Below, one piece after another: positions 2,797-30,787 of a stretch of 32,000 nucleotides of DNA. Every line of letters starts with the position of its first letter. The stretch's first letter is position 1. The notes beneath the pieces were generated by a model, which ran no database searches, was not told the DNA's origin, and saw only the letters and a program-made list of their open reading frames with translations. Source of the DNA: an uncultured archaeon (GTDB lineage Archaea > Asgardarchaeota > Thorarchaeia > Thorarchaeales > CAZPUN01). The DNA is taken from positions 4,557 through 36,556 of the forward strand of contig CAZPUN010000026.1 of assembly GCA_964589775.1 (NCBI GenBank), read 5' to 3'. A program made the position numbers and the translations under genes.

Positions 2797-4107
2797 CTAT
2801 ATTATCTCAACAAGATCATATCTTGATTTCTTATTCCTACGTGCTTTAAAGACAAAGAATGGATTTATGTGGTATGGCTTTTCAATATATGCGATAAGAG
2901 AACCTAAAATTACGGAGAGTCGTATGGATAAATCGGAAATTGTCATAATATATTGATTTATTTTAGATTCTTGAAATGAGAATAGAAGTAATGTGATATT
3001 TGATTTTGTGAACATCTTATTCATTAAGTTTAATATTTCATCAATAGACATAAATGTTAAGAATGTATCGATGAAAATAGCAATTAATACTTCTTTTTGA
3101 TGTATTATTATGTCATCAATTTTTGTTCTTATATCATAAGAAGCACCTTGTTTCTCTACAAAATTATAGGGATTTATTATAATAACCGTATCGTTTATTT
3201 TATCATCAGTATATTTTTTACGAAGTATTGCTTTTATATGCTCAGTTCGTTCATTACACGGAAGAAGAACTATTAATTTTTTATTATTATCGATCCATGA
3301 CAGCAGGAGTGTACCAAATAGGTCACTTGCATACTCAGTATTTAAATTGTAAGGTAAAATGACATGAAGTGAACTTCCTAATTTTAAGCCGCCACCTAAA
3401 ATTGAATCTACCTTTTTAATTCCGGTTGGAATTATAGTGACTGGCTCTTCATATTTTATTAATTCAATTTGCCGAATATCTTGAGGTTCGGGTATTGGAA
3501 TCGTTCGAAATATGCCATCGACAAGTGTATACACACCGAAAGGTCGCTCGATTGGGACTCCACGAGATTTTGTGATTTCGTATACTCTGAATCGTCGTTG
3601 GTTTATTATTTTGAATCCAAGTTTAATAACTCCAGATACATCCCGTTCAATATTGAACTCATCTTCTTTTTCACTTATGTATATCCAATTTCCTTTTATT
3701 AATTGATGAATTTCTGAAACATGCATATTAGATTTTGTTAAAACTCGTTCAAATGCTTGTATACTATCAATTATGAAAATCGCATCGGGGTTTTGCTTAC
3801 GTAATGTGCGAAGCTGTTCTATCAACGAGATACCATCAGGTGACCTTATTGTTTTAAGATCGCTGTCGTTATATAGGCTGCCGCGTGCATCTACGAGATC
3901 CTCTTTAGACAGTACTTTCTTGGCTATCGGTATTTGTTCTAGGACATCCATAGGATTTCCACGTGTTGAAATATATATTGCCTTTCGTCTAAGTATCTTT
4001 GATATAGTCAAACTTAGAATTGTTTTTCCTGAGCCTGGGCGTCCTTCTATTAAAAGGACTGCATTAGGATTTTTGAAAAATTTCTTAAAGAACTCCAAAA
4101 TGCCCAC
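2797..4107 (-). CDS. GvpD/KaiC-like RecA-superfamily ATPase, two domains, second degenerate
   Basis: Walker A GRPGSGKT, Walker B FIIDS and EITKSRG (KxRG). The second domain starts IPTGIKKVDSILGGGL but has no GKT. Confidence 0.8.
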   Translation of the reverse strand: MGILEFFKKFFKNPNAVLLIEGRPGSGKTILSLTISKILRRKAIYISTRGNPMDVLEQIPIAKKVLSKEDLVDARGSLYNDSDLKTIRSPDGISLIEQLRTLRKQNPDAIFIIDSIQAFERVLTKSNMHVSEIHQLIKGNWIYISEKEDEFNIERDVSGVIKLGFKIINQRRFRVYEITKSRGVPIERPFGVYTLVDGIFRTIPIPEPQDIRQIELIKYEEPVTIIPTGIKKVDSILGGGLKLGSSLHVILPYNLNTEYASDLFGTLLLSWIDNNKKLIVLLPCNERTEHIKAILRKKYTDDKINDTVIIINPYNFVEKQGASYDIRTKIDDIIIHQKEVLIAIFIDTFLTFMSIDEILNLMNKMFTKSNITLLLFSFQESKINQYIMTISDLSIRLSVILGSLIAYIEKPYHINPFFVFKARRNKKSRYDLVEII

Positions 4108-6481: not shown

Positions 6482-9400
6482 CTAAGACTTTCTAATTAAC
6501 GCTAATATTTTCTCTCTCTTGAGATAGATAACTACTACCGCAACGACAGTTACTCCGACAACTACTATGACAAGAGCATATTGCGTCAGAAGATCATTTT
6601 GAGCTGTATTATTTTGTGCTGAAAGTACGTGAATAGTGATAGCAAAGGGCGTTTCTAAGTTAAATGCATCTCTGAATTTTATTAATACAGTATATGTACC
6701 CGGCTCACCGGAAAATACGTATGAAATCGTTTGATTTGCTTCCCAAGTGCCTGTTTCTACAGATACATTGTTCACAAGAATTTCATAGGTTGTTGGACTG
6801 AAATCTTCCGCCTTCCATGATAGCGTCACAGTGTCTGTACTATTAATTGTAATTTCATAACTAGATCCAAGAAATGTTACTACCGGCGCAGCTATAGGAT
6901 GTATATATACAATTACAGTGCTCACATTCACAACGTACCATGAATAGATGACTATGGTATAATTATACATTCCGACATCAAGTGTTCCGAGATCGATAGA
7001 GACCGTTACATTCGGAGGCGTATTTACTACATCTATTTCGGTTCCATTCATATAGAGGATGTAGCCTTCTAATGAAAATCCTTCGAGATGCCATTGTAGT
7101 AATTTATGATATGAGTATTCATTATGAATTACACTGGGCCCGGCTTCAATAGTTGGTACGAATATTTGATATATACCATAGGCAAAAAGTCCATAGATTA
7201 AGTTATTACCACCAGATATACTACCATCATTGAATAATACACAATTGTCATTATAAAATGCAGATATGTTTGTGTTAATGAATTCTGAGTAATAATAATC
7301 GCTCGGATTTGGATACACTCCAGTGGAATTTACTTTTGTAGACATCGTTGAAACGCCTAAATATCCATAAACATTTTCGATTGTACAATTATAGTATTTG
7401 TTGTGATTTTCAACAAATTCGGTGAAATTATTTGTAAAGTATGTTGAGTAGATTGAAAGCTTGGTTATATTGCAACCTACGAGCGTTAAGTTTACTACAT
7501 CATATGTATAGACCGTACTTAATTTAACGTTCTTTACATACGAATTCATTGCTCGGCTGGATGAAATTCTTACGGATACTGCAGGATAACTATCATTGTA
7601 TTCATCGTTGATATACGTTAATTTCGCATTGTTGTATACTGATATTTTATAATATGATTCTAGAAAATGAGAGTTTCGAATATTTAATGTTGAATATTGT
7701 TTAATATAGATATAACTATGGAATGTCGAGTTTTCTATAGTAAATTGTGAGTATTCATTTAGATATATTGTCTTATCAAATAAAGTTGTATTTGCATATA
7801 GGGTTGTATGGCCATAACTATAAATGTATCCAACCGTTGAATTTGTAAGCACAAAAGATGCATAATCATACGATCTAATATCTTCATCTACAGTTGAATT
7901 TTTCATAATTATTCGCGAGTTTCCTCGCATTACTATAAATTGAAACTTTGAATTAAGGATCGTTGAATTTATAATTTGCATTGTACTATTTTCGTAGAGC
8001 AATATACAATACGTTTTAGTTGAATAAACAAGGTTTTCTACATGCATTGTTGAATTGATGAAATTACCGCTTACAACATTATCGACCATTGTTATACTAT
8101 TTGTTCCGGTACCCAGAATGAGCTCTTGATAATTATTGACTGTAACATTTACGAAATAATTATTTATATTATCAAAATTATAGGTATTAGTGTATATGTA
8201 TGAATAACCAGAATATGGATTTACGCCAGTGTATATACTGCCTGAAATTTGTACGTTTATTAAACTGAGCTTAGTATTATAGCTAAGAATGGCATAACTC
8301 ATTGTTGTGAATAATGCATTTGATATGTTTACATTACTATCAATCATATAAATTGTTAAAGATACTGAAACATTAGTAATAGCAATAGTTGAGTTATTGA
8401 TATACATTGTACTCAGTGTGGAATTCGAGATCGTTATATTTGAGTTTGAGAATCGGTAGTTGTAATAATTAAAACCGTTAAATGTTGAATTATAAATATC
8501 GACAGTTCCACTTGTAGTAATTATTCCTCCATTTGGATAAATTGAGGTATTTACAAGAATTAATGTTCCGCCATATAACATGAACATAGTCGCAGTCGAG
8601 ATATTTGAAACGCGTACGGTTCCATTATATATGCTAATTGAATTAAAGTAGATTTTTGAATATGTTAGATTCTCAGGAATTAACGTCTCGCCAGATTCCG
8701 TCAAAATACCGCTTGGAGTTATATTTGCATCACAATATATATATGCGGTATCATGATAATATTTGGCGTATACATTGATAATTGTCTGATTTTCTCTTTG
8801 ACTATTGTAGTTGTAAAATTCATAAGTTATATTCACGTTCTTGAAATAGTTAATACTATCATATACTCGAAAGCTATAGATACTTGTATTAACTATTGAT
8901 AATGTTACATTTTTTAAATATGGCGAAAAACTAAAGGATGTAATATTTGAGCCGATAATATTAGCACTTGTATTATAATACGTATACAATGAGTTAATTG
9001 TTGCATTATATAGATACAAGTTTGAATTATCATTCTGATAAACTGTATTCTTAAATTCAGAATTTATTAATTCAAATGATGAATGATATCCGTAAAGTTC
9101 ACTGGAAAGTACAGAAGTATATACATATACCGATGAATAATATGCATATATCCTATGTGGATTAGTTGTACTACCGAGACTATATGATCCATTGATCAAA
9201 TATATTCTATTCCAATTCGTTAAATAGGATAACTGTGTCAAGTCCCAATCGCCTATAAAGATGTAACTATTTGGAGCCATATTTACAATCGAATCTTTTG
9301 TATATTCGTCAAGATCTACTCCAAATGTATGTGTTCCAGTAGGTCCACTGTATTGTATTGAACCGGGACCCCAGCAATATAAAAGACCTAAATAGTTCGT

Positions 9401-10069
9401 AATGTTTGAATGTTGTATATGTACAAATGTCTCAGGGTAATGATTATGATATTCATCCATATATAGGGTCGTAATGTTTGAGTTTTCAATTACCGTATTG
9501 AGTGGAGAATAATCTGCAGAAACCTCATAGTATGTTATGTTTGAGTCCTGTATGGATACTCGAAAAGTACTTCCCTCATTTAATTGGTTTATAGTACTAT
9601 TACGGATGGTAACTATGCTGTAGTCACCCATTTCAAAATAGCCGGTAATATTACAATTGACAAGTTCTATTGTAGCGTATTGATATGATTCAATAGTATC
9701 AACTGTGACGTTATACAAATATACATGAACTCCGCCATAAAGATTCAATGTGTTATCCACAACGGAATTACTGAGCCAGAGTGTGCTGTTATCATTAACA
9801 TAGATCCTGTCAATTATAGAGTTGTTTAATTTAGCAACTTCCGAATTGTATAATCTGAGGGTATGTATTGTAATATTATCAAGATCGATAGCGGTTGTAC
9901 TTGCACCAATCTCTTTCTTACTAAATTCATTAATTTTAGGTGCCATAGAAATTGTATTTTGTATGTTTTGAGATTCGTTTTGAGGTATTGTCATCATATT
10001 TTGTGAAAAACCAAAACTAATCACAAATAACATAAATACAAATACGGCATACGGTTTATTATTGTTCAT
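6482..10069 (-). CDS. Large secreted, membrane-anchored beta-helix-like surface glycoprotein with C-terminal Ig-like domains
   Basis: Signal peptide after MNNNK, long N/S/T/Y/I-rich hxhxNSTh repeats with many N-x-S/T sequons, Ig-like C-terminal repeats (GMYNYTI, GTYTVLI), C-terminal TM plus basic tail. Start at 10069 chosen from the SD; the ORF track starts at 10135. Confidence 0.8.
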   Translation of the reverse strand: MNNNKPYAVFVFMLFVISFGFSQNMMTIPQNESQNIQNTISMAPKINEFSKKEIGASTTAIDLDNITIHTLRLYNSEVAKLNNSIIDRIYVNDNSTLWLSNSVVDNTLNLYGGVHVYLYNVTVDTIESYQYATIELVNCNITGYFEMGDYSIVTIRNSTINQLNEGSTFRVSIQDSNITYYEVSADYSPLNTVIENSNITTLYMDEYHNHYPETFVHIQHSNITNYLGLLYCWGPGSIQYSGPTGTHTFGVDLDEYTKDSIVNMAPNSYIFIGDWDLTQLSYLTNWNRIYLINGSYSLGSTTNPHRIYAYYSSVYVYTSVLSSELYGYHSSFELINSEFKNTVYQNDNSNLYLYNATINSLYTYYNTSANIIGSNITSFSFSPYLKNVTLSIVNTSIYSFRVYDSINYFKNVNITYEFYNYNSQRENQTIINVYAKYYHDTAYIYCDANITPSGILTESGETLIPENLTYSKIYFNSISIYNGTVRVSNISTATMFMLYGGTLILVNTSIYPNGGIITTSGTVDIYNSTFNGFNYYNYRFSNSNITISNSTLSTMYINNSTIAITNVSVSLTIYMIDSNVNISNALFTTMSYAILSYNTKLSLINVQISGSIYTGVNPYSGYSYIYTNTYNFDNINNYFVNVTVNNYQELILGTGTNSITMVDNVVSGNFINSTMHVENLVYSTKTYCILLYENSTMQIINSTILNSKFQFIVMRGNSRIIMKNSTVDEDIRSYDYASFVLTNSTVGYIYSYGHTTLYANTTLFDKTIYLNEYSQFTIENSTFHSYIYIKQYSTLNIRNSHFLESYYKISVYNNAKLTYINDEYNDSYPAVSVRISSSRAMNSYVKNVKLSTVYTYDVVNLTLVGCNITKLSIYSTYFTNNFTEFVENHNKYYNCTIENVYGYLGVSTMSTKVNSTGVYPNPSDYYYSEFINTNISAFYNDNCVLFNDGSISGGNNLIYGLFAYGIYQIFVPTIEAGPSVIHNEYSYHKLLQWHLEGFSLEGYILYMNGTEIDVVNTPPNVTVSIDLGTLDVGMYNYTIVIYSWYVVNVSTVIVYIHPIAAPVVTFLGSSYEITINSTDTVTLSWKAEDFSPTTYEILVNNVSVETGTWEANQTISYVFSGEPGTYTVLIKFRDAFNLETPFAITIHVLSAQNNTAQNDLLTQYALVIVVVGVTVVAVVVIYLKREKILALIRKS

Positions 10070-10300
10070 TGGAATTCTACTCTCCCAATAAATCGAAAAA
10101 ATCGATTTGTGAAATTTCATAAAAAATATTATCATTTTTATTAAAAAGATTTTGGGTGAAACGACTAATATAAAAAATTAGATGATATGAAAAATAAAGC
10201 ATCATTTATTATTTCCAAAATGTTTCCTTTTCAAATATTGTTGGGTTTAATAGTAAAAATTCTGTAAACTCTAACGAATATAATACAGGGATGAACTACG

Positions 10301-12315: not shown

Positions 12316-12358
12316 ATATCAAATTAGTATATTTAAATTTATTTAGGAGGTGTCTAAG

Positions 12359-14053
12359 ATGGCAACGGATCAGAAAACATTAATTGAACAAAAGGACAGT
12401 GCAGCGAGGATAACATGTCTTGCTGCTTATGATGATTACATCTGCCTCGGTCAGTCAGACGGTATAGTCGCCATCTACAGAGACTCATACGAACCGATCA
12501 AGACATTTGCGGACACCAATGAGCCAATAGTAAGAATCTATATGGATTCCGAATATATTTATGCAAGTACCGATGCGGGGAAGGTTTTCGTATGGTCTCT
12601 ATTGGATGAAAAGCTAGAAACAATCATTGAAGAACATAATGAAGGTGAAGTCATCGTATTCAGTGATGAACATTATTTTTATACTGGAGGGGCAGATGGA
12701 AAACTGATAATTTGGAATAAAAAGATATGGGAACCGAAAAAGAAAATAAAGGCGCATAAGTCAGCAATTCTTTCAATTAGTTCAGACCATAAACATATCT
12801 ATTCGAGTGCAAAGGACGGGAAAATAAAAGTATGGTTAAAAGAAAGTTGGAAATCTGATGTAATTAATGAAAATCTTAAGGATCCAATTGTAGAAAATGA
12901 CGATTCACGACTTTATATAGTATCTCAGAATGAAATACATATTTTCGAAAAAGGAAAATATGATAAGGCTGTGAAAGTTCTCAAAGAAGATGAGCCTATT
13001 GACGAAATCAGAATTGATGAAAAACTAATTTACATTCTGTACAAGAACGGTCATTTCAAAGCAATACTGAAAGAAACTATGACAAAAATCTTCTTCGATT
13101 CGCGAGCCATTGGAAATCCATTGTCACTTGTGCCAACAAAAGAATTTCTCTATGCAGCACATTCAAATGGGTCTATCAGTAGGTGGGAGAAAAAGTATCT
13201 CTTACCCGTTCTTGAAAAGAAAGAGGACAGTCCAATATTATTCAATCGAGTTGACGAGAACTACCTATATATGGTTTTGAAGAATGGAAAGATTATTGTC
13301 AAAGACAAATATACTTTAGAAAAAATCGTTGAATTGTATGAGGGAAATAAGCCTGCTAAGATGATCTGTGTAGATAAGAATTTCGTTTATGCATCGCTTG
13401 AGAAAAACAGAATTGGCATCTGGGAAAAGAATTCATGGAAGTTCGTTATGGAGCTTTCGGACTTCTCATGGTCCGCGTTTATAATTGCAATTGAGAACGG
13501 ATATTTCTACGCTGGTTCGGGATATGACCTATATATCTATGAAAAAGGTTCTTGGAAGCAAATTGCAAATTACTTTGAAGATTCTGGAATTATTACAGCG
13601 TTAATAGTTGATAACAACAATATTTACATCGGAACACACAAAGGAACAATCTCAGTCATTGATAAGCATGAACTGAAACAGATTAAATTAATAAAAGCAC
13701 ATAAATCCGGTGTTAGACGTTTTGTGATTCGAAATAACATATTGTATTCTGCAGGAGCTGATGGCGCGATAAAATCATGGAATATTAAAACATTCGAAAA
13801 GATCAATGAATCACATATTAGTAAAGTACCGATTAGAAGTATGACTGCAGATGATGAGATCTTATATACTGCTGTAGCAGGGGATATTCGAGCATATGAT
13901 CTAGACCTAAACTTAAAATTCATGTATATTAATCAATGGTCCAGCTCAATTGCAACGGATGAGAATTACCTATATTCTGGAAATATGGGCGGTATCATTA
14001 GGATCTGGGAAAAACCAAAACTTTACAGGAATGTCCAGAAAAGGATCAATTAA
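12359..14053 (+). CDS. WD40-repeat protein (probably two beta-propellers)
   Basis: Repeated YxGxxDGxhxhW and AH..AI motifs with ~40-aa period over ~560 aa. SD AGGAGGTG supports the ATG at 12359. Confidence 0.9.
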   Translation: MATDQKTLIEQKDSAARITCLAAYDDYICLGQSDGIVAIYRDSYEPIKTFADTNEPIVRIYMDSEYIYASTDAGKVFVWSLLDEKLETIIEEHNEGEVIVFSDEHYFYTGGADGKLIIWNKKIWEPKKKIKAHKSAILSISSDHKHIYSSAKDGKIKVWLKESWKSDVINENLKDPIVENDDSRLYIVSQNEIHIFEKGKYDKAVKVLKEDEPIDEIRIDEKLIYILYKNGHFKAILKETMTKIFFDSRAIGNPLSLVPTKEFLYAAHSNGSISRWEKKYLLPVLEKKEDSPILFNRVDENYLYMVLKNGKIIVKDKYTLEKIVELYEGNKPAKMICVDKNFVYASLEKNRIGIWEKNSWKFVMELSDFSWSAFIIAIENGYFYAGSGYDLYIYEKGSWKQIANYFEDSGIITALIVDNNNIYIGTHKGTISVIDKHELKQIKLIKAHKSGVRRFVIRNNILYSAGADGAIKSWNIKTFEKINESHISKVPIRSMTADDEILYTAVAGDIRAYDLDLNLKFMYINQWSSSIATDENYLYSGNMGGIIRIWEKPKLYRNVQKRIN

Positions 14054-16646: not shown

Positions 16647-17111
16647 TCACGCAATCTTTGTGAGTCTAAATTTACATAATCCATTTTTTGGATCAAGATC
16701 TATTGGTATGATTTCAAACGCTGCAGAAAGCGTTTCGAGAAGAGCGGAAAGCTCAATCTCGCAAATTTTGTTGCACTCTAAATCTAGTTTGGAAAAAATT
16801 TCTTTATACCGAATATCTCCATGAATGCTTATAATTATTTCATCATTGCCTTTTTCTATAGTGATCTTCTCAGGAGACATAACTTCATTCGCATAGGCTT
16901 CCACAAGCTTTGTGGCATCCTCAAGTGTGTGTTGTAAGGACTTTTCTTTTATTTCATGTTCCGCAAAAGAAATTGCTGCTCCACTGTATAATGCGGGGTA
17001 AATTATCATTGCATCATCAATACTAAATTGTTGTGCTAACGCCAATAAAATGCCTCGGCTTGCACCTAAGAATGTATGCTTCAATCGCGCTAGGTTTTTC
17101 TCGTCGCTCAA
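16647..17111 (-). CDS. Hypothetical protein, V4R-like small ligand/metal-binding fold
   Basis: C..IC in a helix plus a terminal C.F strand; size and layout resemble archaeal V4R-like proteins. Confidence 0.55.
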   Translation of the reverse strand: MSDEKNLARLKHTFLGASRGILLALAQQFSIDDAMIIYPALYSGAAISFAEHEIKEKSLQHTLEDATKLVEAYANEVMSPEKITIEKGNDEIIISIHGDIRYKEIFSKLDLECNKICEIELSALLETLSAAFEIIPIDLDPKNGLCKFRLTKIA

Positions 17112-17316: not shown

Positions 17317-17405
17317 TTTAAAAAAGAGAAAAATTTTTATATGCGAATAGAATGAGCTATCCTTATATGGGATTAATGACAAAATAAATATCAAGAAAAC
17401 AAAAA

Positions 17406-17492
17406 TGGAGCCCGGGTATATCTTGTTTTGAAGGCCCTCAAACGAAGTAATCCCAAAAGTCTCCCCTCCTGACCGTTTTTACCCGGGCTCCA
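17406..17492. ncRNA. Candidate structured small RNA closed by a perfect 13-bp GC-rich stem
   Basis: TGGAGCCCGGGTA (17406-17418) pairs with TACCCGGGCTCCA (17480-17492), enclosing 61 nt with an inner hairpin. On the minus strand there is a TTTAAA box ~25-30 nt upstream and a T-tract immediately downstream. Confidence 0.5.
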
Positions 17493-17624
17493 CCTCTTAT
17501 ATTTATAAATCAAAAATTTAAACTTATTATTTTTATAAACGTAAGACAAACAGAATTAAATAAAAATATATAATCTCCATAAATCAAAAAATGATTGAAA
17601 AAAATTCTTTTCAGAATTTAGATT

Positions 17625-18551
17625 TTATAATCCGAGATATTTAAAAAAGTCGCTTTTGTGTGTTCTAATTGATTTTATGACTTTGTTTATTGTTTCTTTA
17701 TCGATTTTATTTATATGTAAGCTTTGGTTTATAAACTCCAAAAAGTCTGTGATCGTAGATACCGCAAGATCTGCAAGTTTCTCATTATTAAGCTCTTCTA
17801 TTAGCCCATTAAGAACTTCTGACGGGACTAATTTCGTTTCCATTGATGATAACTTGGATAATAGATTGCTTTTTTTCTCCAATAATTTATTAAAACTTAG
17901 TTCTGGTGATTCATTAATAAGATAGACCTTTTCAATTCCGCCAATCTTAGAATATCCCTTAATAATTTTAAAGTTAGCACGACGTTCAAAAAGTTGATCA
18001 TTTATTTCATTAAGCCTTCGGAACATTGTATTTAGGAAGTCTTTATCGATCAAATTTTCTTTTAAGAGGTACAAGTCCGCCTTATTTATGACAGCTAAGA
18101 GTGGAATTTTATTAATTTGAAAATCGTAATGTTTTCCAAATTTAATTAATAATTCAGAAATTACACGTAAAGCGTTTTTGACTTCAGTCGATGGTTTTGT
18201 TACGATGCTATCTCCAAGAATGAAAACTGGCATGATATATTGCTCATTTGTACCTAAACGAAACGTTTTTTGTATGGATTCATTACGATTTCGAACTATT
18301 TCGGATAGATAGCCTCCGCCAGTTGCTAAGAAATTAATATTTGTTTCTGAAAGTTTCCAAACTAATAAATCGTTATCAACAGTTGTTGTTTCTGTTGGGC
18401 TTAACCTAAGTTTTCCTTGTACAGATATTTCAAGCTTTTTGAGTGCATAACTGACGATGTTAGCAAATTGGACCAGGAAGCTTGTTTTTCCAGTATCTTT
18501 TGGGCCCAATATTAAAATCCAAATTTTTGTTCTGGATTTTCTTCTTATCAC
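17625..18551 (-). CDS. Divergent small P-loop GTPase (MglA/CvnD, COG2229-like) with C-terminal helical extension
   Basis: G1 GPKDTGKTS, G2-like TETTTVDND, degenerate G3 FLATGGG, G4 INKAD. SD GGTGA overlaps the upstream stop codon. Confidence 0.75.
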   Translation of the reverse strand: MIRRKSRTKIWILILGPKDTGKTSFLVQFANIVSYALKKLEISVQGKLRLSPTETTTVDNDLLVWKLSETNINFLATGGGYLSEIVRNRNESIQKTFRLGTNEQYIMPVFILGDSIVTKPSTEVKNALRVISELLIKFGKHYDFQINKIPLLAVINKADLYLLKENLIDKDFLNTMFRRLNEINDQLFERRANFKIIKGYSKIGGIEKVYLINESPELSFNKLLEKKSNLLSKLSSMETKLVPSEVLNGLIEELNNEKLADLAVSTITDFLEFINQSLHINKIDKETINKVIKSIRTHKSDFFKYLGL

Positions 18552-18561
18552 TTGGTTTCAC

Positions 18562-20472
18562 CTATGTTTTTACATATGGCCTTCTCCCTATTATTAAGAC
18601 AGAAAATCTACCAATTTTGTAAATAGGATGCTCTTTGTTCCAGATATTTCGCAAGAGCCATAATAGTGTTGATGGATATTTAGAAGATTCTAGCTTCCTA
18701 TGTTCATATTCTGCATAGCTTTTCTGTAAGCTTTCTGATGTATTATTCATAAGGTCTGCAATACTTTTTAGAATTGTTTCATTACGGTTTAAATATGATA
18801 TAAAGTTATTCGCTCTTTCTATTGGGTTCCTTATACCTTTTCTAAAAGACATAGTCGCAAAAACATCAACTATTTCCTTGAAACCCATTTCTTTACTGAA
18901 TTTTTCATTTTCATCCTCGTCGAAGAAATCATCATTATTGCGTTCGCGACCAATCTGGACTATTAGATTTGATATTGGAGGTCTCGATAGCATATTCCAA
19001 TACGTATAGAAGCTTTTGAGTGAGTATGCCCATGTTGTTAGGGATGTTCTTTCATTTATTGCAAGATCTGGTGAAAGAACAAGATCAATATCGCCAAAAA
19101 TCATGGCTACGAATCTAGTAGAAATTGTAAATGTGAATTCATTTCGTCTTCTTGCATGGTTAAGTAATCTTCTGAGGAATCTAGAAGCAATCATGATCTT
19201 TTCGTTTATATAGAATAAATTACTAAGATGCACTGTATATTCGCGATTAATTTCATATTCTTTACTATTTTCAATTATCCAGTACAATAGGTTTACACGG
19301 GGATGTAATATCTCATCGTTTGGATACGCTAAATTCACATGTTCATTAATTGCTTTAATAGGTTTCTCAATTTTATGAAGGCTATATGCGACAGATATTC
19401 CACTTAATAATGAATGTTGTTCGACCAACTCCTCAGACTTTCGCGATATTAGTTCGATCAATAAAGTAAGCATTGCATCCATTCTATTGCTCTCTAGCAT
19501 AGCTAAGTGAAATGTAAATGGATCCAGCATAATTGGTTTCTTTATGCTATTTTGATAATTTGCTTTTGTAATTATTGCATCATCATTGATGGTGAATTCA
19601 TTCACATTCGGTCCAATATTTGAATGATACATCTCTTTAAATGGTGTTAGTAATATTTCATACTCGCTTCTGCAACATTCATTATCAACCAAAGCTATAG
19701 ATTGCGTTGATTTCATAACCATTAATGATTCCGCAGTAAACATTCTTGGGTGTATATTATTATTAAAAATAGGAATGAATCCCACCCAACCTTGTGATAT
19801 GAATGATGCAGGATAGCCAATAACCTGTTGAATGATATTTGAGGGTTGCTTAATATCCTTAGGAATGTATAAGACAAGCCCGAAATAAATTTTCTCGTTT
19901 TTAAGATTATTAATTAATTCATCACAATTTGAAGCGTTCAATAATTCGATAGGGGTTTCATAGAAAAAGAAATCAATATTATATTTCTCAGGATCAAACT
20001 TCCCTATTTGTCCTTCAAGTTCATTAGATTTATCTTGTTCAGTTTTTACTATTTTTAATATATTCAAGAACAGTCTGCTCAAAAAATTAGTATCGATCTC
20101 TTCAGAAGCACTCTTTTGAATTCTAATTGCTAAGCCGTTTGGAAATGCATTTTTCTTTATTGGAGATACTTGTTGTATTCGTCCTTTTTTCGTATGCACT
20201 TTCCAAAAAGAATCGACGATTTTCTTAACGAGGCCCACTTTTTTATGCGTCGAGTAAACTGATTCTGGATCTCTATATGTTAATGCAGAATAGTCCAAGA
20301 TATTGTACTCTCGACCCATTATCCAGATTTTAGGTCCTTTTGCCTTCTCAGGAAATAAGTCCTTAAATTCATTATCAATGATTGTCAGATTTAATTCTTC
20401 ATCATACGCATCATAAGCAATATCTGTACTTGCCTGAACTAATACGAGAGGCAATGCAAAAGTATATGTCAT
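18562..20472 (-). CDS. Hypothetical protein (636 aa), possible degenerate tubulin/FtsZ-like core
   Basis: Long ORF inside the operon. Residues ~196-265 end in IALVDNE with tubulin/FtsZ-like spacing, but there is no GGGTGSG. The CDS is secure; the fold call is speculative. Confidence 0.75.
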   Translation of the reverse strand: MTYTFALPLVLVQASTDIAYDAYDEELNLTIIDNEFKDLFPEKAKGPKIWIMGREYNILDYSALTYRDPESVYSTHKKVGLVKKIVDSFWKVHTKKGRIQQVSPIKKNAFPNGLAIRIQKSASEEIDTNFLSRLFLNILKIVKTEQDKSNELEGQIGKFDPEKYNIDFFFYETPIELLNASNCDELINNLKNEKIYFGLVLYIPKDIKQPSNIIQQVIGYPASFISQGWVGFIPIFNNNIHPRMFTAESLMVMKSTQSIALVDNECCRSEYEILLTPFKEMYHSNIGPNVNEFTINDDAIITKANYQNSIKKPIMLDPFTFHLAMLESNRMDAMLTLLIELISRKSEELVEQHSLLSGISVAYSLHKIEKPIKAINEHVNLAYPNDEILHPRVNLLYWIIENSKEYEINREYTVHLSNLFYINEKIMIASRFLRRLLNHARRRNEFTFTISTRFVAMIFGDIDLVLSPDLAINERTSLTTWAYSLKSFYTYWNMLSRPPISNLIVQIGRERNNDDFFDEDENEKFSKEMGFKEIVDVFATMSFRKGIRNPIERANNFISYLNRNETILKSIADLMNNTSESLQKSYAEYEHRKLESSKYPSTLLWLLRNIWNKEHPIYKIGRFSVLIIGRRPYVKT

Positions 20473-20534
20473 TTTGCAACCCCAAATTTATTCTCCATTT
20501 TTCATCTATATATAATTATTTATAAGTTGACGTA

Positions 20535-21974
20535 CTATTTAGATTTATTTTCATCCGCACTAATTGTTCTAAGGAGAGTCCTTATTTTTTCGCGATAGCC
20601 ACTAAAGAAGCCCATAATGTCTTTTACAGCGATATCTGTACTTTGGTCTTTAAAATCTTCGAAGATTGTTTCTAAGTTATACTTGTTTCGTTTATCAATA
20701 ATATCTTCATATCCCATCAATTTGAAAATGGATAGCATGGGACCATCGAAATCGATCTGAGCTGCTATCTCTTGAGGTGTAATACGTCCTGCCTTAATTA
20801 AGGCCTCCACAAAAGACACCTGGTCTTTAGATATGGTATTGATTTGCTTTAAGTCATAAATCAGAGTTGATAGGTCGTAATCATAATAAGGAATAATAGA
20901 CAAGTTCAAGATTTTCTGCTTTGTTTCATTTTCATATTTTAGCAATTCAAGAAACATCTTTGCTAGAACTTTAGTAAGATTCTTCAAGACACGTTTCGTT
21001 ATATAGTTTCGAGAGTGGTTCTTTTCGTATGCATCTGTTTCGATCTTTCTGATTTTAGTCTCGTGTTCCTCTACATATTTTCCGATTATATTTGATAAGG
21101 ATTTACTTGATAAAATGATACCATTTCCAATTTGAATATCCGTGTCCTTTGATTTACAGGATTCAAATCTTTCCATGGTTGCTTTGGAATCCTTAGTTTT
21201 GAATATTTTCGATACGAAGGATATGAAGCCTTTCTTTTGAGTAAATTCACCACTCAAAGCGACATAATTATTTATTACGACTTGTACAAATGCATTTTTA
21301 CCCTTCTTCTGCATTAGTTTTCGGAACTTCTCAAGCAGTTCAAATTCATTGAGGAGTGATCTCTTATCTGATAGTACCCCTAATCGCAGAATGTGCGTCA
21401 ATGCGAAGTTCTTAGATGGAATTTCCTCAATTAGATTTTCAACAACTTCATTCGCTTCTTCATACTTTCCAAGCTTTTCACTAAGCCAATTCAGGAAGAT
21501 GAAGTTTCGTACCTCTAGAGTTTCAATGTCCGGCGTGATACTATCGAAAGCAGTATTCGTATCGATTACAATATATTGGTATCCTTCGTGTTCAATTATG
21601 TTCTTAGATCTCGAAATAATTTTCCAGAAATCGTGTGATGAACCTCTATTTGCACCTTTGCTCCAAATGACGCCAACATTCTTTTGTTTTCCAGTTCCTT
21701 TTATATTTATGATGTACTTCTTATATGCAATTCGTCCAGCAATGATACGCTCCTCAACTTTGATCTGTTTCGGACCAAAAATCTTGGCATACATATCAAA
21801 AGTGCCGATAGTAATATCTGCAGCATCCGGATTCATGTCATTAGTATCAATGAGTAAGACATTTAATCCTTCATTGAAGGCCTCGTTAATTTTTACAAGA
21901 GCAGTAATGGTTTTTCCACTACCGCCTTTTCTTGCAGTAATTATATCAAGTATTGGAAAAGACAACGTATTCAT
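20535..21974 (-). CDS. MinD/ParA-family (SIMIBI) P-loop ATPase with long C-terminal extension
   Basis: Deviant Walker A KGGSGKT, A' motif VLLIDTN, Walker B YIVIDT. ATGA overlap with the upstream gene. Confidence 0.82.
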   Translation of the reverse strand: MNTLSFPILDIITARKGGSGKTITALVKINEAFNEGLNVLLIDTNDMNPDAADITIGTFDMYAKIFGPKQIKVEERIIAGRIAYKKYIINIKGTGKQKNVGVIWSKGANRGSSHDFWKIISRSKNIIEHEGYQYIVIDTNTAFDSITPDIETLEVRNFIFLNWLSEKLGKYEEANEVVENLIEEIPSKNFALTHILRLGVLSDKRSLLNEFELLEKFRKLMQKKGKNAFVQVVINNYVALSGEFTQKKGFISFVSKIFKTKDSKATMERFESCKSKDTDIQIGNGIILSSKSLSNIIGKYVEEHETKIRKIETDAYEKNHSRNYITKRVLKNLTKVLAKMFLELLKYENETKQKILNLSIIPYYDYDLSTLIYDLKQINTISKDQVSFVEALIKAGRITPQEIAAQIDFDGPMLSIFKLMGYEDIIDKRNKYNLETIFEDFKDQSTDIAVKDIMGFFSGYREKIRTLLRTISADENKSK

Positions 21975-23860
21975 TCTTTATCCTCCTCTTCTGAAGCTGG
22001 GTTCTTATATATAAGCATCAGATTTGCTATACATACAATGATATAGCTCATGATTGTACCGAACAAGAATTGATAGTAGAAGTTTGTAGTAATCATAAAA
22101 CCGATTGCAGAAATTATAAACATCAAAATCATAACTGATAATTTCAACTTAGAAACTCTAAGATATGTTCCGCTTTTAAGATTTGAAGATTCCAGCAAGT
22201 CTTTTTCTGGAACAATATATCCGACCATTGGCATTATGAGTACAGAAAATAGACTAGCAATAATGAATAAAATAGATTCAACTGTCAAATACATTTGATG
22301 CCCGAAGATAGAAATGTTAAGTGAAATTGTGTTTGTATACATCCTATAGAAAATTAAATTAAAATCAAATTTTTCAGAAATACCAATTATTGTTAGAGCA
22401 GGTACAAATAACGTAATCGTAGCCTGTAAAACATGAAGTAATGTCCTTCGGGAATGATATTCAACCTCTTTTGCTCTAGGGCTTAACTGTTTCAAATTAC
22501 TCATTACTCGGTCTTGTTCCCACAAAGCTCTATAGAAGCTTAAAACCGTAATTCCTACTGAAATAAAAATACCAACCCAATAGCTTGTTGTCGGAAGGCT
22601 CAGCTTTAGCATTGCTATGAATAAAGCGATCAATAGTAAGCTTCCTATGGCAAATAGTATTAGTTCATAGAGTTTTATACGCCGATAGTAGGATTTTCTA
22701 ATTTTTAGTGTAGGCCACATGTAGACCGCAGCAGGTCCCGTGAAATATAGTAGTGGAATTCCATATTCTAATGGTGGTTTCACTTCGCCTTCCCAGAACC
22801 CTCTGACAAATGCCTGACTAAGATAATAGAGACCTTTCGGCAAATCTGAGGAGTTAATCAAATTGATTTCTGTGGGTGTAATATTAAAAATCACAATTAA
22901 TCCTAATCCAATGAATGCAGATAAGAGAAATGTGAATAGGAATGAAAATATGAACTGCTCGGGCTTATCTCTTAACAACTTGAGAGAAGTTATAATACCA
23001 TTCTTATACCGGTATAAAATATTGATCGAGAATAATAGAATAATTGGTGCTACTGAAAATGTTATACCCAGCATTCCAAAGCTTATATAGGGTAGAAACC
23101 AACTTGATACTTCATGACCGGATAATATCAAATAAATTTCATAAACTATGCTTCCTTCTACCATAGAAATGACCATAAGGAGAATAAGCAATCGCTCTTC
23201 GGGCGTCAAATTATGTAATGTTCTAAATGGAAGAAATACAAAAATAACTAAACTAAACAAAATGACAAGAATCGGTATTATGAACGCATGATTAAATCCA
23301 AGTGTGATTGAATAATTCGGGAGAATCCACCATACGTCTCCAGTCTCCGGAAAGAATGCCATACTGAAGATATTGATCATTGGAAATATATCGATTATAA
23401 AAATTACAATCGAGATAATAATACTCTTCAAGATACTTTTACGTTCAATTCGCGTGTATCCATCTGCGTAACAGTCTTTATACTTTGCAAACGGTATCTG
23501 TGAAACTAGCAAGATCAATAAAAATGAAAAAGTCAAAGCATGCATGAACGACAAAATCATGAATGAATTCGAATTTATGCGTGAATAGTTTCCTAATGCA
23601 AGAGATATCAATAATATCGAGAGAAGATTAAAATTTAGGGAGAATTGACCTCCGAAATATAGTGACAAAATGGCAAAAATAAGCATTACAGAAAATCCTA
23701 AGAAGAATATGTTTAGATTTGTATATTCAGACTGTTTGTAATGAATGGCCACATATCCAATCAGCATTAGGACTACTAAAACCATCGCAATATCCAGTCG
23801 CTTTGTTGCTTCATTTCGAAGTCTTTGAAGTTCATTGATGTCCCCACTACCAGTAGGCAT
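21971..23860 (-). CDS. Large polytopic membrane protein (~16 hydrophobic segments), unknown family
   Basis: Hydrophobic segments counted by eye. SD GGGAG supports the ATG at 23860; the ORF track starts at 23947. Confidence 0.82.
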   Translation of the reverse strand: MPTGSGDINELQRLRNEATKRLDIAMVLVVLMLIGYVAIHYKQSEYTNLNIFFLGFSVMLIFAILSLYFGGQFSLNFNLLSILLISLALGNYSRINSNSFMILSFMHALTFSFLLILLVSQIPFAKYKDCYADGYTRIERKSILKSIIISIVIFIIDIFPMINIFSMAFFPETGDVWWILPNYSITLGFNHAFIIPILVILFSLVIFVFLPFRTLHNLTPEERLLILLMVISMVEGSIVYEIYLILSGHEVSSWFLPYISFGMLGITFSVAPIILLFSINILYRYKNGIITSLKLLRDKPEQFIFSFLFTFLLSAFIGLGLIVIFNITPTEINLINSSDLPKGLYYLSQAFVRGFWEGEVKPPLEYGIPLLYFTGPAAVYMWPTLKIRKSYYRRIKLYELILFAIGSLLLIALFIAMLKLSLPTTSYWVGIFISVGITVLSFYRALWEQDRVMSNLKQLSPRAKEVEYHSRRTLLHVLQATITLFVPALTIIGISEKFDFNLIFYRMYTNTISLNISIFGHQMYLTVESILFIIASLFSVLIMPMVGYIVPEKDLLESSNLKSGTYLRVSKLKLSVMILMFIISAIGFMITTNFYYQFLFGTIMSYIIVCIANLMLIYKNPASEEEDKE

Positions 23861-24144
23861 TAAATAATCTCCCTTTGCTTTTGTAATATCATATATGATA
23901 AAACTTGTTTTTAAATATTTTTTAAGGCATATTTCGATTTTTTGCATAAATTTTAAGACAATTTATAAAGATTTATTGAGTTTATTATTGCGGAATATTT
24001 GATATGTTTAGTTTCAGAATCCATAAATATTCTTTTATATTACCGATTTTTTAAAAGAATTTGCTTTTTGAAAAAAAAGTTTTCTCATTTGGTTAGTAAA
24101 TTTTAAATATTTTCTGGGCTCTACAATTAATATGGTGATCTCTT

Positions 24145-24663
24145 ATGAGTACATCTAAATCCATGGAGAGAAAGTTTGCAGGCATTACGATGGCTGCAGT
24201 TATGGCAAGCATTCCACATTTGGGAATTGATATGTCAATAGCGGCTAGAATTACTGGAATACAAATAAAAGAATTGATGGAAAAAAGCAACGAGGAAATT
24301 CCTTACAAGAAAATTTTCGAATATATTAAAGAAAATTTTAAACCCAATAGTTCAAGTGATGAATACGATAAATTAAGAGAAATTCTAAAACTATTCAGAG
24401 AGGCTGTAGCAAAATATTCAATAGGCACTTCCATTGAATATTCAGAAATTAAGGATAATAAATTCGAACTAAATATAAAGAATTGCTTCCATAGTTATGC
24501 GAGGAATGCACTAAACATTTTGGGTATTAATCCACCAATTTGTATTGCATTAGGAGTTACTTCAGCATTAATAGAAGAGATATCTGGAAAAGTCCTAAGT
24601 ATTAAGGACTCCACATATGATCCAGAAACTGAAACATGTCGCCATATAATGGAAATAGAATAA
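24145..24663 (+). CDS. V4R-like domain protein
   Basis: IKNCFH ... PICIALG...ALIE ... TCRHIME three-Cys pattern. SD GGTGA. Confidence 0.65.
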   Translation: MSTSKSMERKFAGITMAAVMASIPHLGIDMSIAARITGIQIKELMEKSNEEIPYKKIFEYIKENFKPNSSSDEYDKLREILKLFREAVAKYSIGTSIEYSEIKDNKFELNIKNCFHSYARNALNILGINPPICIALGVTSALIEEISGKVLSIKDSTYDPETETCRHIMEIE

Positions 24664-26812: not shown

Positions 26813-29281
26813 TTATCGCTTCTTAATCTTTATGGCTATTCCGACAAGTACTACGATCGCGATAAATATAGCCATAAATCCGGCATATTTTGATAGATCT
26901 GTAGGTACCTCTGTTGAGGCTTCAGAAACGATAAATGTGTATGTATTTGACTTGGCCATATTATTGTTTCCATCATACGCCGTAATATAGAATGTAACAT
27001 TGGTTCCCTCTGGCAAAATGCCTAATGAGTAATGAAATATAGATTCAGTTGTTTCAGCTTCCATTTCGCCAGTATGCATTTCACCGTTAATGTAGTATGT
27101 AATGTTCACACTGTGTATAACCTGATCAGATACCTTCGCTTTAATTATAATTTCACTACCTGCGTCCGGTGCATTCGGTTCTGTCCAGACCGAAATGAAC
27201 TTGGGCGGTACATCATCATACATTGGATTCTTACCTTGTTGATATTCCTGTAAGTTTGTAAGACCGTCTCCATCAGAATCTTGACTCGCATCAGAAGAAT
27301 TAGTTGGATTCAATCCATACTGTACTTCCCAACCATCTGGCATACCATCGCTATCAGTATCATTGTTTCTTGGATTTGTGTTATGCTGAAATTCTTGTAT
27401 GTTTGTGAGATTATCATTATCCAAGTCAAATGCGGCATCAGAAGAATTAGTTGGATTCAATTCATACTGTACTTCCCAACCATCTGGCATACTATCGCCA
27501 TCGGTATCAGGATTAGTTGCATTAGTATTATGCTGGTACTCCTGCACGTTTGTGAGTCCATCGTTATCTGCATCTAATGCGGCATCAGAAGAATTAGTTG
27601 GATTCAATTCATACTGTACTTCCCAACCATCTGGCATACCATCGCCATCGGTATCAGGATTAGTTGCATTAGTATGATATGTATTGATTTCTGCATAATC
27701 ACTTAATCCATCATTATCTGTATCACTACTGTTGGGATTTGTATGATATGTATTGACCTCTGCACTATCAAGTAGTCCATCACCATCTGTATCGGCATTC
27801 AAAGGATCTGTATGATATGTATTGACCTCTGCACCATCAAGTAGTCCATCTGCATCTGTGTCATTATTCAAAGGATTTGTATTGTATGTATAAACTTCTA
27901 CACCATCAAACAATCCGTCGCCATCTGTATCATTTACAGACATATCAGTACCTTTTCGAATTTCCCAGAAGTTCGATAAGGAATCATCATCATTATCTGC
28001 GGATACGATTTGCCAGTAATAGATATATTTCTCGCTACCATCAAAGTAGTTATGGTAACCAGCAATTATGAAATAATCAATACTACCACCTATGCCTGCA
28101 GGTGGTGTTGACACAAGACCCAAAGGATAATTATCATAGCCCGTGAAATGTGTTACATATTTTGTTGTTGTGAATGAATATGCATCTACAACCCAGAAGA
28201 ACTCATCAAGATAGGTATTTACAACATATCCGGTTATATAAACAGCAGATATACTTTTCATATAAATTGCGGTTGCTCTGCTATGTTTGGAAGATTCTGG
28301 AAAGGTAACAGATCCAGAAGCTGTAAGTGTATCGTTTGTATATCGTTCGAGGATAGCTACATTTACTTTATGACCCACAACATAAATATTATTAAGCGCA
28401 TCTGCAGTGATTCCAGTAAATACAACAGATCCATGATTGTCGGAACTTGTTGCTGTGCCTAATAAGGTTCCATCATATTTGTATTTTAGAATGATTCCTT
28501 GCTGAGCTGTTCCATTCGAAATCGCACCAGATACTAAAACTATTTGATCAATACCAGGATATACATAAATATCACAAGCAAAGTCTTCATCATTTGTATA
28601 GCTATTATCATATGTCTTATACCATATTACATTTCCAGCATCATCAAATTTGATTAATAGAATGTCAGAATCAGTGCTCGTTTTATTTACATAGCCTGCA
28701 ACATAAATTCCATTGCTTTCAGAATAGGAACTTCCATATACATGAACTCCTACAGTATCATATGATGGATCTGTTGGATATTGCCATGCTTTTGCCCATA
28801 CGAATGTTCCATCATTATTCAGCTTAACTAATAATAGGACCCAGTGGCCACTTGTTGAGTTGAATGTACGTCCTGTAATGTAAAGGTTTCCATTGGCACC
28901 ATATGTTATTCCATATCCATATTCATAATTTCCACTTACATCATATGTGTAATTCCATACTACATATCCAGACCTATTAATTTTTTCAACAAAAAGGTCC
29001 GTGTATGCAGATGAACCTTGTTGAACTGCACCTGTGACATAGAAATTACCACTATAGTCTGCTGCCACATCATATCCACGTGGTACTGCCCATTGACTAG
29101 TAATGTTTCGCTCATACACGAAAGCATAATCTGTCGTATCAGCTATAGAAACTTGAGTGTTTTGTATGTTGTCTTTATGTAATACAGACTGATTCATGTT
29201 GCTGGAGGGGATAAATGCAGAGACAAATAGGATTCCAAATGCTATGATAAAAACAATTTTTAGCTTATTGTTCATAATCAT
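26813..29281 (-). CDS. Membrane-anchored surface protein: SBBP-like beta-propeller + Ca-binding DxDxDG (bacterial TSP3-like) repeats + Ig-like domain
   Basis: Signal peptide, GNxYhTG and K.d.dG..vW repeats, many DTDGDG/PDGWE repeats, C-terminal TM plus KIKKR. SD AGGAGG. Confidence 0.88.
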   Translation of the reverse strand: MIMNNKLKIVFIIAFGILFVSAFIPSSNMNQSVLHKDNIQNTQVSIADTTDYAFVYERNITSQWAVPRGYDVAADYSGNFYVTGAVQQGSSAYTDLFVEKINRSGYVVWNYTYDVSGNYEYGYGITYGANGNLYITGRTFNSTSGHWVLLLVKLNNDGTFVWAKAWQYPTDPSYDTVGVHVYGSSYSESNGIYVAGYVNKTSTDSDILLIKFDDAGNVIWYKTYDNSYTNDEDFACDIYVYPGIDQIVLVSGAISNGTAQQGIILKYKYDGTLLGTATSSDNHGSVVFTGITADALNNIYVVGHKVNVAILERYTNDTLTASGSVTFPESSKHSRATAIYMKSISAVYITGYVVNTYLDEFFWVVDAYSFTTTKYVTHFTGYDNYPLGLVSTPPAGIGGSIDYFIIAGYHNYFDGSEKYIYYWQIVSADNDDDSLSNFWEIRKGTDMSVNDTDGDGLFDGVEVYTYNTNPLNNDTDADGLLDGAEVNTYHTDPLNADTDGDGLLDSAEVNTYHTNPNSSDTDNDGLSDYAEINTYHTNATNPDTDGDGMPDGWEVQYELNPTNSSDAALDADNDGLTNVQEYQHNTNATNPDTDGDSMPDGWEVQYELNPTNSSDAAFDLDNDNLTNIQEFQHNTNPRNNDTDSDGMPDGWEVQYGLNPTNSSDASQDSDGDGLTNLQEYQQGKNPMYDDVPPKFISVWTEPNAPDAGSEIIIKAKVSDQVIHSVNITYYINGEMHTGEMEAETTESIFHYSLGILPEGTNVTFYITAYDGNNNMAKSNTYTFIVSEASTEVPTDLSKYAGFMAIFIAIVVLVGIAIKIKKR
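27288..27880. repeat. Intragenic tandem repeats: three 147-bp units followed by 69-bp units
   Basis: GCATCAGAAGAATTAGTTGGATTCAAT starts at 27288, 27435 and 27582. GTATGATATGTATTGA recurs with a 69-bp period near 27672, 27741 and 27810. Confidence 0.9.
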
Positions 29282-29476: not shown

Positions 29477-30787
29477 ATGAAAGTTACCTATTCCGGAATA
29501 AAAAGCAAAAAGACAATCGATATACCAAATAGAGCAAGAAAACTTGAAATTCATGGGATACGCGAAATCGATTTAAATCAGTTTAGAGACTTAAAATTTT
29601 TAGAAGTTCTGGATCTAAAAATGGGAAAACTCAAATCTATCGATTTAACGCCATTAAAGAATTTACCAAAGTTACGGGTTATTGATTTACGAACAAACAC
29701 ATTAGAAGAGTTAAAGATACCCAAGGACGGATTTAGAAATTTAGAAGAATTCTTAGCTGGAGGAAATTGGGTATCGCGAATCAATCTGGGGCATTTTTCA
29801 GGTTTGGAGAATTTAAAAATCATTGATCTAACGTCGAATCAGTTAGAAGACCTTATGATTGAACAAGAGATGCGTCTCCCAAGCTTAGAACGGCTTACTT
29901 TGATTCAAAACCGACTAGAATCCTTCAACTTTGCACATTTTAACAAGCTGTATCACTTACGTAAGATAGAGTTATCTGAAAATAATATCAGACGTCTTAT
30001 ATTCCCTGAACGAATAATTATACCTGAACTTGAAGAACTGTGGTTGGATTCCAATAATTTAACAGAATTCAACATAGATCAACTGGAAAATACATCAATA
30101 AGAAAGCTCGTACTTGCGAAGAATAAAATTCAGAACATCAACATTAGTGAAACTGTCATTCTGCCACATTTAGAACTCTTACTACTTTTTGAAAATAAAC
30201 TATCAGACATAAAAATTTCACAACATAATTTTCCTAGTTTGAAGGTATTGGATCTTGATAGAAACAATCTGACCGACACAATTTTTGATTCTGAACTTCC
30301 AGAAGGTCTTACTGAATTATCGATTGGTGGAAATAGGCTTAAGGTATTCTCATTCTCTTGGCTTGAGCGATTAAAAAATCTCAGACGACTGTTTCTTCAT
30401 GATAATGAAATTGGTGAAATTGAACTCGAACGGAGTTTCTCGCTCCCCATCGAGTATCTAATGTTGGGAGGTAATCGATTACAAAATATTGACTTGAATA
30501 AGTTAAACTTGACAAATATTAAGCTTTTAGAGTTATCCGAAAATGAATTAACCGAGTTTAATCTGGATTTCCTACGACGTAGCAAGAATAAAAAAATCAT
30601 AATCGATTTGAAATACAATAAAATAGAGGAGATCTTAGTTGATAAAAGTGTTGTGGAAAAGATAGAGAAACTAGACCTTATGCGAAATCCTATCAAGCGA
30701 ATTAAGCTAAAAGGTTTAAAACGGGTTCCAGATTTCATTTGGCTCGATGATGAATTAGAAGGCTCAATTGATTTTATTTTTATTTAA
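29477..30787 (+). CDS. Leucine-rich repeat protein
   Basis: About 16 LxxLxLxxNxL repeats spanning nearly the whole protein; no signal peptide or TM seen. Confidence 0.93.
   Translation: MKVTYSGIKSKKTIDIPNRARKLEIHGIREIDLNQFRDLKFLEVLDLKMGKLKSIDLTPLKNLPKLRVIDLRTNTLEELKIPKDGFRNLEEFLAGGNWVSRINLGHFSGLENLKIIDLTSNQLEDLMIEQEMRLPSLERLTLIQNRLESFNFAHFNKLYHLRKIELSENNIRRLIFPERIIIPELEELWLDSNNLTEFNIDQLENTSIRKLVLAKNKIQNINISETVILPHLELLLLFENKLSDIKISQHNFPSLKVLDLDRNNLTDTIFDSELPEGLTELSIGGNRLKVFSFSWLERLKNLRRLFLHDNEIGEIELERSFSLPIEYLMLGGNRLQNIDLNKLNLTNIKLLELSENELTEFNLDFLRRSKNKKIIIDLKYNKIEEILVDKSVVEKIEKLDLMRNPIKRIKLKGLKRVPDFIWLDDELEGSIDFIFI

Follow-up and report, generated by a model that had tools for sequence, protein, structure and literature searches.

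A window of 32,000 nucleotides (nt) from an uncultured archaeon (the whole stretch analysed; contig CAZPUN010000026.1 of GenBank assembly GCA_964589775.1) encodes on its minus strand, at positions 17625-23860, a polytopic membrane protein, a MinD/ParA-class (SIMIBI) ATPase, a large soluble protein and a divergent TRAFAC-type small GTPase (Table 1). The composition of this quartet matches none of the described systems with which it was compared. The quartet recurs in full order in a second species and by composition in a distant Asgard genus, which bears out the first-pass annotation (made by a model from the sequence alone) in treating the genes as one co-inherited, four-part unit. Our favoured reading, which we hold tentatively, is that the unit may be a membrane-anchored module of two slow switches for sensing or conflict.

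Table 1. Features of the four-gene unit and their positions in the window
Feature	Position	Strand	Remarks
Polytopic membrane protein gene	21971..23860	-	629 aa; ORF itself 21971-23947, 658 aa
MinD/ParA-class (SIMIBI) ATPase gene	20535..21974	-	479 aa, DxNDMNP subfamily
Large soluble protein gene	18562..20472	-	636 aa
TRAFAC-type small GTPase gene, divergent	17625..18551	-	308 aa, helical C-terminal extension
ATGA stop/start overlap, membrane gene-ATPase gene	21971..21974	-	kept in second species
TAGGTGA stop/Shine-Dalgarno overlap, large gene-GTPase gene	18558..18564	-	kept in second species
62-bp gap, ATPase gene-large gene	20473..20534	-	AT-rich, TATA-like words; candidate internal promoter
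Deviant Walker A motif RKGGSGKT of ATPase	21909..21932	-	signature Lys16; motif intact
Sensor motif DTNDMNPD of ATPase	21825..21848	-	Asn45 at catalytic Asp site of ParA/MinD DxD, by alignment
Internal basic amphipathic segment of ATPase	21198..21236	-	aa 247-259; candidate membrane-targeting helix; low-confidence helix in model

Host and Gene Organization

The host genome (2.16 Mb, 97% complete) alone represents its family in the collection searched. It encodes actin (439 bits) and profilin, and for this reason is assigned to an Asgard archaeon, in line with the archaeal origin proposed earlier. The closest solved profilin is 7pbh, a Thorarchaeota protein, which gives a tentative lead to the class.

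All four open reading frames (ORFs) were confirmed, and their shared orientation, the two overlaps and the single gap are present as first described; both NTPases likewise have their P-loop motifs. The start of the membrane protein was placed at Met30 (nt 23860) because both orthologues begin there. All three junction types are found again in the second species (locus L004). The large protein and GTPase genes are separated by 5-19 bp in the window and at four other loci (L004, L035, L033 and L038), and from this spacing appear tightly coupled. The 62-bp gap possibly holds an internal promoter for these two genes; the AT-richness of the DNA weakens the evidence from its TATA-like words, and a sigma-70 scan, which is unsuited to archaea, gave chance-level results. 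None of the four window proteins is named above curated cut-offs by Pfam, NCBIfam or PADLOC.

An Asgard ATPase Family with a Changed Catalytic Residue

The AlphaFold model of the ATPase (predicted template modelling score 0.68) has a beta-hairpin and helical inserts. When it was compared with the PDB all top rows were SIMIBI proteins (Z 12.4, root-mean-square deviation 4.7, 235 aligned residues), supporting the fold behind the earlier MinD/ParA label, and MinD, ParA, Get3 and other SIMIBI structures matched equally, with no favourite. The CbiA profile also matches (E 3e-4). PDB sequence searches with the profiles of both NTPases gave no informative match.

The Walker A motif (KGGSGKT) agrees with the KGGxGK[ST] pattern and has the signature lysine. 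Strand 2 should end in the DxD sensor motif that defines the ParA clade (bioRxiv 10.64898/2026.10.19.760177), but the window protein reads D-T-N there, and its Asn45 aligns with Asp40 (D40) of MinD. Asparagine occupies this catalytic position in 20/20 family members, and aspartate in all eight outgroups. In the Walker B (DhhhhD) and G4 motifs the terminal Asp138 and Asn235 are invariant; the first Walker B aspartate is missing in the window protein (QYIVID), where TN also replaces the switch II Pro-Gly that follows. Judging from these residues, hydrolysis by the ATPase may be slow. In MinD, the D40A change gives a locked dimer that is retained on the membrane (PMC13246001).

A profile built from nine ATPase sequences recruits a wider group of ATPases that spans five Asgard families. 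In the searches made, this wider family was found only in Asgard genomes. In the tree it separates from the outgroups with support of 92.7/95, and the eight quartet-type proteins separate from the rest with 98.9/96. In the ESM Atlas, a Pseudomonadota cluster of 363-residue proteins (70 members, of which 11% have CbiA) aligns to 296 residues of the ATPase model (TM score 0.49/0.62), more than the canonical MinD/ParA rows do; on these models it is possible that the cluster represents bacterial relatives.

Short basic-aromatic segments had been reported in all three soluble proteins, and they do exist. Such segments are present in 360 of 830 host ORFs of similar size (43%), so that presence alone is near chance level, and in orthologues the segments of the large protein and GTPase are no longer positively charged. 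Conservation is confined to the ATPase segment, which has a basic amphipathic counterpart in the same position in seven of eight homologues (top 5% of sequence windows); membrane targeting of all three proteins is thus not upheld. The last helix of the ATPase packs into the core of the model, and the conserved amphipathic segment is internal, not C-terminal as in MinD.

GTPase, Large Protein and Membrane Protein

The GTPase has recognizable G1 (GPKDTGKTS), G2 (TTTVxxD) and G4 (NKAD) motifs, and its G3 is replaced by ATGGG. In all five members G3 lacks both Asp and Gln, reading A-[TAS]-G-G followed by G or S. Among the small GTPases of the host, two MglA-type proteins are its best non-self matches (hhalign 85% and 82%), and loss of the G3 aspartate is a trait of MglA (PMC4316618); "MglA-like", as the first-pass annotation put it, is therefore a fair description, to which the threonine-rich G2 (TETTTVDND in the window) adds, the MglA pattern being Arg or Thr next to the G2 threonine. 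The label fails at G3, where the TVPGQ or GTPGQ of MglA and CvnD, with its catalytic glutamine, is absent. In the tree the protein joins two further divergent GTPases of the host (92), not host MglA, on long branches with weak deep support. DO-GTPase2 is the commonest weak Pfam match of these GTPases (four of five, best E 1e-4), the window protein falling below the 27-bit cut-off. A third divergent small GTPase of the host (G000 contig C30:14032-14922; G3 AVGGQ), whose gene overlaps an upstream one for 342 residues, falls among the operon GTPases in the tree, perhaps through long-branch attraction.

The large protein, like its counterparts in the distant lineage, has no Pfam match and belongs to no known family. 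An AlphaFold model from three sequences reached a predicted local distance difference test score of 30, and fold searches with it gave at best Z 5.0 and a Foldseek E of 0.38, so no fold is assigned. In the ESM Atlas both this protein and the membrane protein scored under 0.9, with TM scores under 0.3 by query. There are hints of two alpha/beta regions, longin or ferredoxin-like, that flank a helical middle.

The membrane protein is polytopic, as first noted, with 14-15 transmembrane helices predicted by hydropathy in place of the approximately 16 originally counted; it matches no known family and no transporter family. A stand-alone, full-length paralogue with 23% identity is encoded elsewhere in the host genome (G000 contig C61:5597-7408, the same as L054:5597-7408). 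A divergent GTPase without G3 (L054:1367-2041; hhalign 78% to the operon GTPase) lies 3.5 kb from this paralogue, and between the two is a multi-transmembrane protein with a possible longin-like tail.

A gene with at least four transmembrane segments adjoins the ATPase gene in 17 of the 18 loci with readable flanks, a count that includes kin, so that the loci are not independent, although none of the five families lacks the association. Because this adjacency is near universal, the membrane protein and ATPase are taken as the core of the unit; the downstream partners vary. In one family (f26; loci L067-L071 and L087) the membrane gene and a DxNxxNP ATPase are followed by a longin-type protein of about 300 residues; homology of the latter to the 636-residue protein or GTPase of the window was undetected. 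An arginase-like gene also occurs in family f26. More generally, members of the wider DxNxxNP family stand beside genes with 4-11 transmembrane segments (L067-L071, L084-L087 and L026-L029), and L029 has a tandem ATPase pair.

Distribution and Conservation

In a cluster search of 5.8 billion proteins, the large protein and ATPase each had one other cluster, from the second species (GCA_053940065.1 and sequencing runs). This species has the four genes in identical order and at the same locus, following a PhoU-like gene. Identities to the window are 61% for the membrane protein, 66% for the ATPase, 50% for the large protein (orthologue P0002) and 55% for the GTPase, or about 50-67% overall.

Profile searching in 400 Asgard genomes and in 1.84 billion representative proteins brought out a matching composition in a distant lineage, carried by genome G335, which is assigned to the phylum of the host and encodes actin, and by the vent-type metagenome contigs L033, L038 and L043. 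Here the unit has two tandem ATPase genes, a membrane gene of 900-980 residues on the opposite strand, a 658-735-residue protein without family match and a 299-312-residue GTPase. In G333, of the same genus as G335, the membrane gene adjoins a HAD gene that L033 also has, so the contigs are probably of that genus. The full set was found in two of the 400 Asgard genomes. ATPase, GTPase and membrane protein queries had zero matches in 86 genomes of the same order; genomes without a match are often incomplete (75-83% in genus g79), and absence therefore means not found in those searched.

By sequence, homology between the ATPases of the two lineages is clear (window against nearer copies, E 1e-19 to 1e-28). 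That between the GTPases is weak; these have motifs in common and form one group in the tree (support 88). For the large proteins homology between lineages was undetected (hhalign 0.3%, shuffle Z under 1), as it was for the membrane proteins (shuffle Z 1.6-3.3), and both are conserved inside each lineage. Gene order is rearranged. Between close copies the ratio of nonsynonymous to synonymous substitution rates (dN/dS) is 0.06-0.19 (0.06 for the membrane gene between L004 and L006), equal to that of flanking genes, and three flanking housekeeping genes are 79-95% identical to those of the second species. By these comparisons the four genes are functional, fast-evolving old residents under purifying selection.

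In the sister genome G334 only a C-terminal piece of a quartet-type ATPase is left (L025:2716-3081), convergent with the gene of an HD-CE phosphohydrolase protein (L025:3119-5410), which suggests that the unit has decayed there. The G335 copy adjoins RHH, PIN and Macro genes. No relatives matching these protein patterns were found in viral contigs.

Comparison with Known Systems

A literature search, with subscription papers mostly outside it, found no paper on this gene combination, and the first-pass statement that no described system has it holds after comparison with MinCDE, MglAB, conservons, Arco/Dip, DO-GTPase systems and ParA conflict systems, all of which failed to match. In DO-GTPase/GAP1 conflict systems (PMC7159879), as here, a divergent TRAFAC GTPase is linked to a large multidomain partner, often with transmembrane parts, and the distribution is patchy. 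The window differs in its single GTPase gene, which lacks the Walker B (G3) glutamate, in the SIMIBI ATPase as constant partner and in having no recognized effector. No large protein has a Pfam match to GAP1 (N, M and C domains), a comparison made by sequence.

The ParA-centred conflict systems of Li, Burroughs and Aravind (PCTM, ParA-wHTH and HINPO; bioRxiv 10.64898/2026.10.19.760177) also have a divergent ParA switch, variable inserts and fast-evolving partners, and some have transmembrane parts or a second NTPase. In the portion of that text available, none of the systems combines ParA with a TRAFAC GTPase and a polytopic protein from a gene of its own, and the word Asgard is absent; compared with the motifs given there, the window ATPase lacks the ConB1 valine and the ConB2 Arg/PG and has DxN, not DxD.

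The window GTPase resembles MglA groups 2-5 (PMC4316618) in lacking the G3 aspartate and in a threonine-rich G2 followed by Asp, and a membrane protein is encoded within the unit as in MglA-MglB systems and conservons (CvnA-D). Unlike these, it has G3 A-[TAS]-G-G without catalytic glutamine, and no Roadblock or histidine kinase-like gene was recognized; the unit has no small gene at any locus, although a Roadblock or longin domain may lie inside the large protein. A membrane-binding NTPase with an amphipathic helix (a candidate in the window) is shared with MinCDE and with Arco/Dip, an archaeal GTPase-based oscillator (bioRxiv 10.64898/2026.07.23.738820; PMC13228585) that has a small GTPase. 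Both systems are widespread, whereas the unit is very rare. Unlike MinCDE, it has no linked MinC or MinE (by Pfam and NCBIfam, among neighbours in the window and G335), its helix is internal and its catalytic aspartate is replaced; unlike Arco/Dip, whose GTPase carries an N-terminal extension for membrane binding and is accompanied by SepF-like and FtsZ-antagonist genes, its GTPase starts at the G domain with no SepF-like match, and gene sizes and content differ. Finally, the ATPase lacks the STDPAH and DTAPTG motifs of ArsA/Get3, both of which are seen in the ArsA-like protein of the host.

Possible Function

In the mechanism we favour, the ATPase would dimerize with ATP bound and stay so for long (as a heterodimer in copies with two ATPase genes). 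The amphipathic insert and the polytopic protein would keep this dimer at the membrane, in the manner of the locked D40A dimer of MinD. The polytopic protein would be a variable sensor or anchor that detects a cue at the cell envelope. The large protein would serve as dedicated partner of the GTPase (a GTPase-activating protein, scaffold or effector) and may supply the missing catalytic residues in trans. Both switches would be needed for activation, creating a threshold, and the cue would be relayed onward; the sensing of conflict or stress is the most plausible setting.

We infer this working principle by analogy with NTPase-switch conflict systems, in which constant switches are combined with variable partners (PMC7159879; bioRxiv 10.64898/2026.10.19.760177). 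The constant NTPases, variable partners and patchy spread of the unit, with its decay in the sister genome, resemble such NTPase-centred systems. The divergence of the proteins, faster than that of the flanking housekeeping genes, and the RHH, PIN and Macro genes beside the G335 copy also speak for this reading. A signalling or defence role, which the first-pass annotation had left open, fits better than polarity. Several points weigh against the conflict module. No toxic effector was recognized and PADLOC gave no meaningful match, and the unit lies in ordinary housekeeping DNA of the host, not in a defence island; these keep our confidence modest at best. The GC content at third codon positions (GC3) of the four genes is typical of the genome (47th-91st percentile), and lends no support to the recent horizontal arrival that was considered as a candidate. 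The flanking-gene level of dN/dS gives no sign of a short-range arms race, the unit kept one locus while synonymous sites saturated, and a nearby LRR gene diverges as fast (52% identity) as the unit proteins. The quartet is present in two independent lineages, not five. Asp46, which stands beside Asn45 and is invariant in the quartet-type subfamily, could replace the catalytic base.

The polarity, positioning or membrane-remodelling role proposed at first, in which a MinD-like ATPase and an MglA-like GTPase would cycle on the membrane with the polytopic protein as landmark, appears unlikely. The SIMIBI fold and conserved amphipathic insert of the ATPase, the profile similarity of the GTPase to the two MglA-type proteins of the host and the existence of GTPase-based oscillators in archaea (Arco/Dip) are consistent with it, but the residues for fast cycling are gone from both enzymes (catalytic aspartate and switch II Pro-Gly in one, G3 Asp and Gln in the other), and it is this loss that makes a sensor or defence switch likelier than a MinD-style positioning oscillator. 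Nor was any Roadblock, MinE, MglB, ParB or SepF-like gene recognized at any locus; the host already owns canonical MglA-type and MinD-type genes elsewhere in its genome, and the lack of any match in the 86 same-order genomes searched is unlike core cell biology. We rank below this, as quite unlikely, a machine resembling ArsA-ArsB or Get3-Get1/2, in which the ATPase dimer would drive or gate transport or insertion through the polytopic protein under regulation by the GTPase pair. The adjacency of membrane and ATPase genes in 17 of 18 readable loci across five families, their translational coupling, tandem ATPase genes reminiscent of ArsA and of the Get3-like heterodimer of mycobacteria, and TRC40/Get3-like chains among the top Foldseek rows all suit such a machine. 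Its membrane partners, however, range from 4 to about 20 transmembrane segments without detectable homology to one another and match no transporter family, the ArsA/Get3 motifs are not retained, and the Get3 rows are tied with those of MinD, ParA and other SIMIBI proteins.

Least probable to us is that two separate gene pairs (membrane protein with ATPase, large protein with GTPase) travel together without joint action. The only long gap, with its TATA-like words, divides the pairs; the distant genus splits them by about 220-250 bp or by an inverted membrane gene; and members of the wider ATPase family are present where there is no GTPase. Synonymous divergence between L033 and L038, higher for the large and GTPase genes (0.62 and 0.40) than for the ATPase and membrane genes (0.18-0.29), hints at separate exchange. 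Against independent pairs, strong GTPase matches are confined to two genomes, both with a complete DxNDMNP ATPase, and the pairs remain in one cluster despite rearrangement.

Neighbouring Genes and a Conserved Noncoding Element

Small unnamed proteins flank the unit on either side (24145-24663 and 16647-17111); both look V4R-like by eye, which Pfam did not confirm, and both are missing from the corresponding positions of L004. The former has paralogues in the genome. Further along, the window encodes an 822-residue secreted protein that is anchored at its C-terminus and has nine calcium-binding repeats of the bacterial TSP3 type (26813-29281), in place of which shorter genes stand in the second species; a 1217-residue surface protein with a weak beta-helix match (6482-10135); a double WD40 propeller protein (12350-14053); an LRR protein (29477-30787); and a KaiC/GvpD-like P-loop protein (2797-4107).

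Just downstream of the GTPase gene is an 88-nt GC-rich noncoding element (17406-17493) with a 13-bp terminal stem. Its folding z-scores are -3.9 in the window and -4.8 in L004 (about 12915-13005), and it is approximately 97% identical in the second species, compared with 55% for neighbouring proteins. A BRE/TATA-like word on the plus strand (17326-17343) is kept beside it. The element has no Rfam match and was not found in the 86 same-order genomes or the distant-lineage loci; it may be a new small RNA.

Implications

The organization of eukaryotic cells relies centrally on small GTPases that work at membranes, and the Asgard context of these proteins is little known. Claims about eukaryotic ancestry are limited by the rarity of the unit. 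A wider model, which we consider doubtful, is that an Asgard-specific family of naturally hydrolysis-poor, MinD-fold ATPases docks on interchangeable membrane proteins and signals to interchangeable partners (a longin protein in one lineage, and in the window the large protein with a small GTPase that lacks DxxGQ), the quartet being a direct SIMIBI-to-small-GTPase membrane relay; if true, such a relay would be a two-switch platform new for prokaryotes. The unit offers a defined, testable four-protein case in which a membrane protein stays together with a MinD-fold ATPase and a small GTPase. It also delimits an Asgard family of ATPases in which the very residue that is mutated in laboratories to lock MinD is naturally changed.

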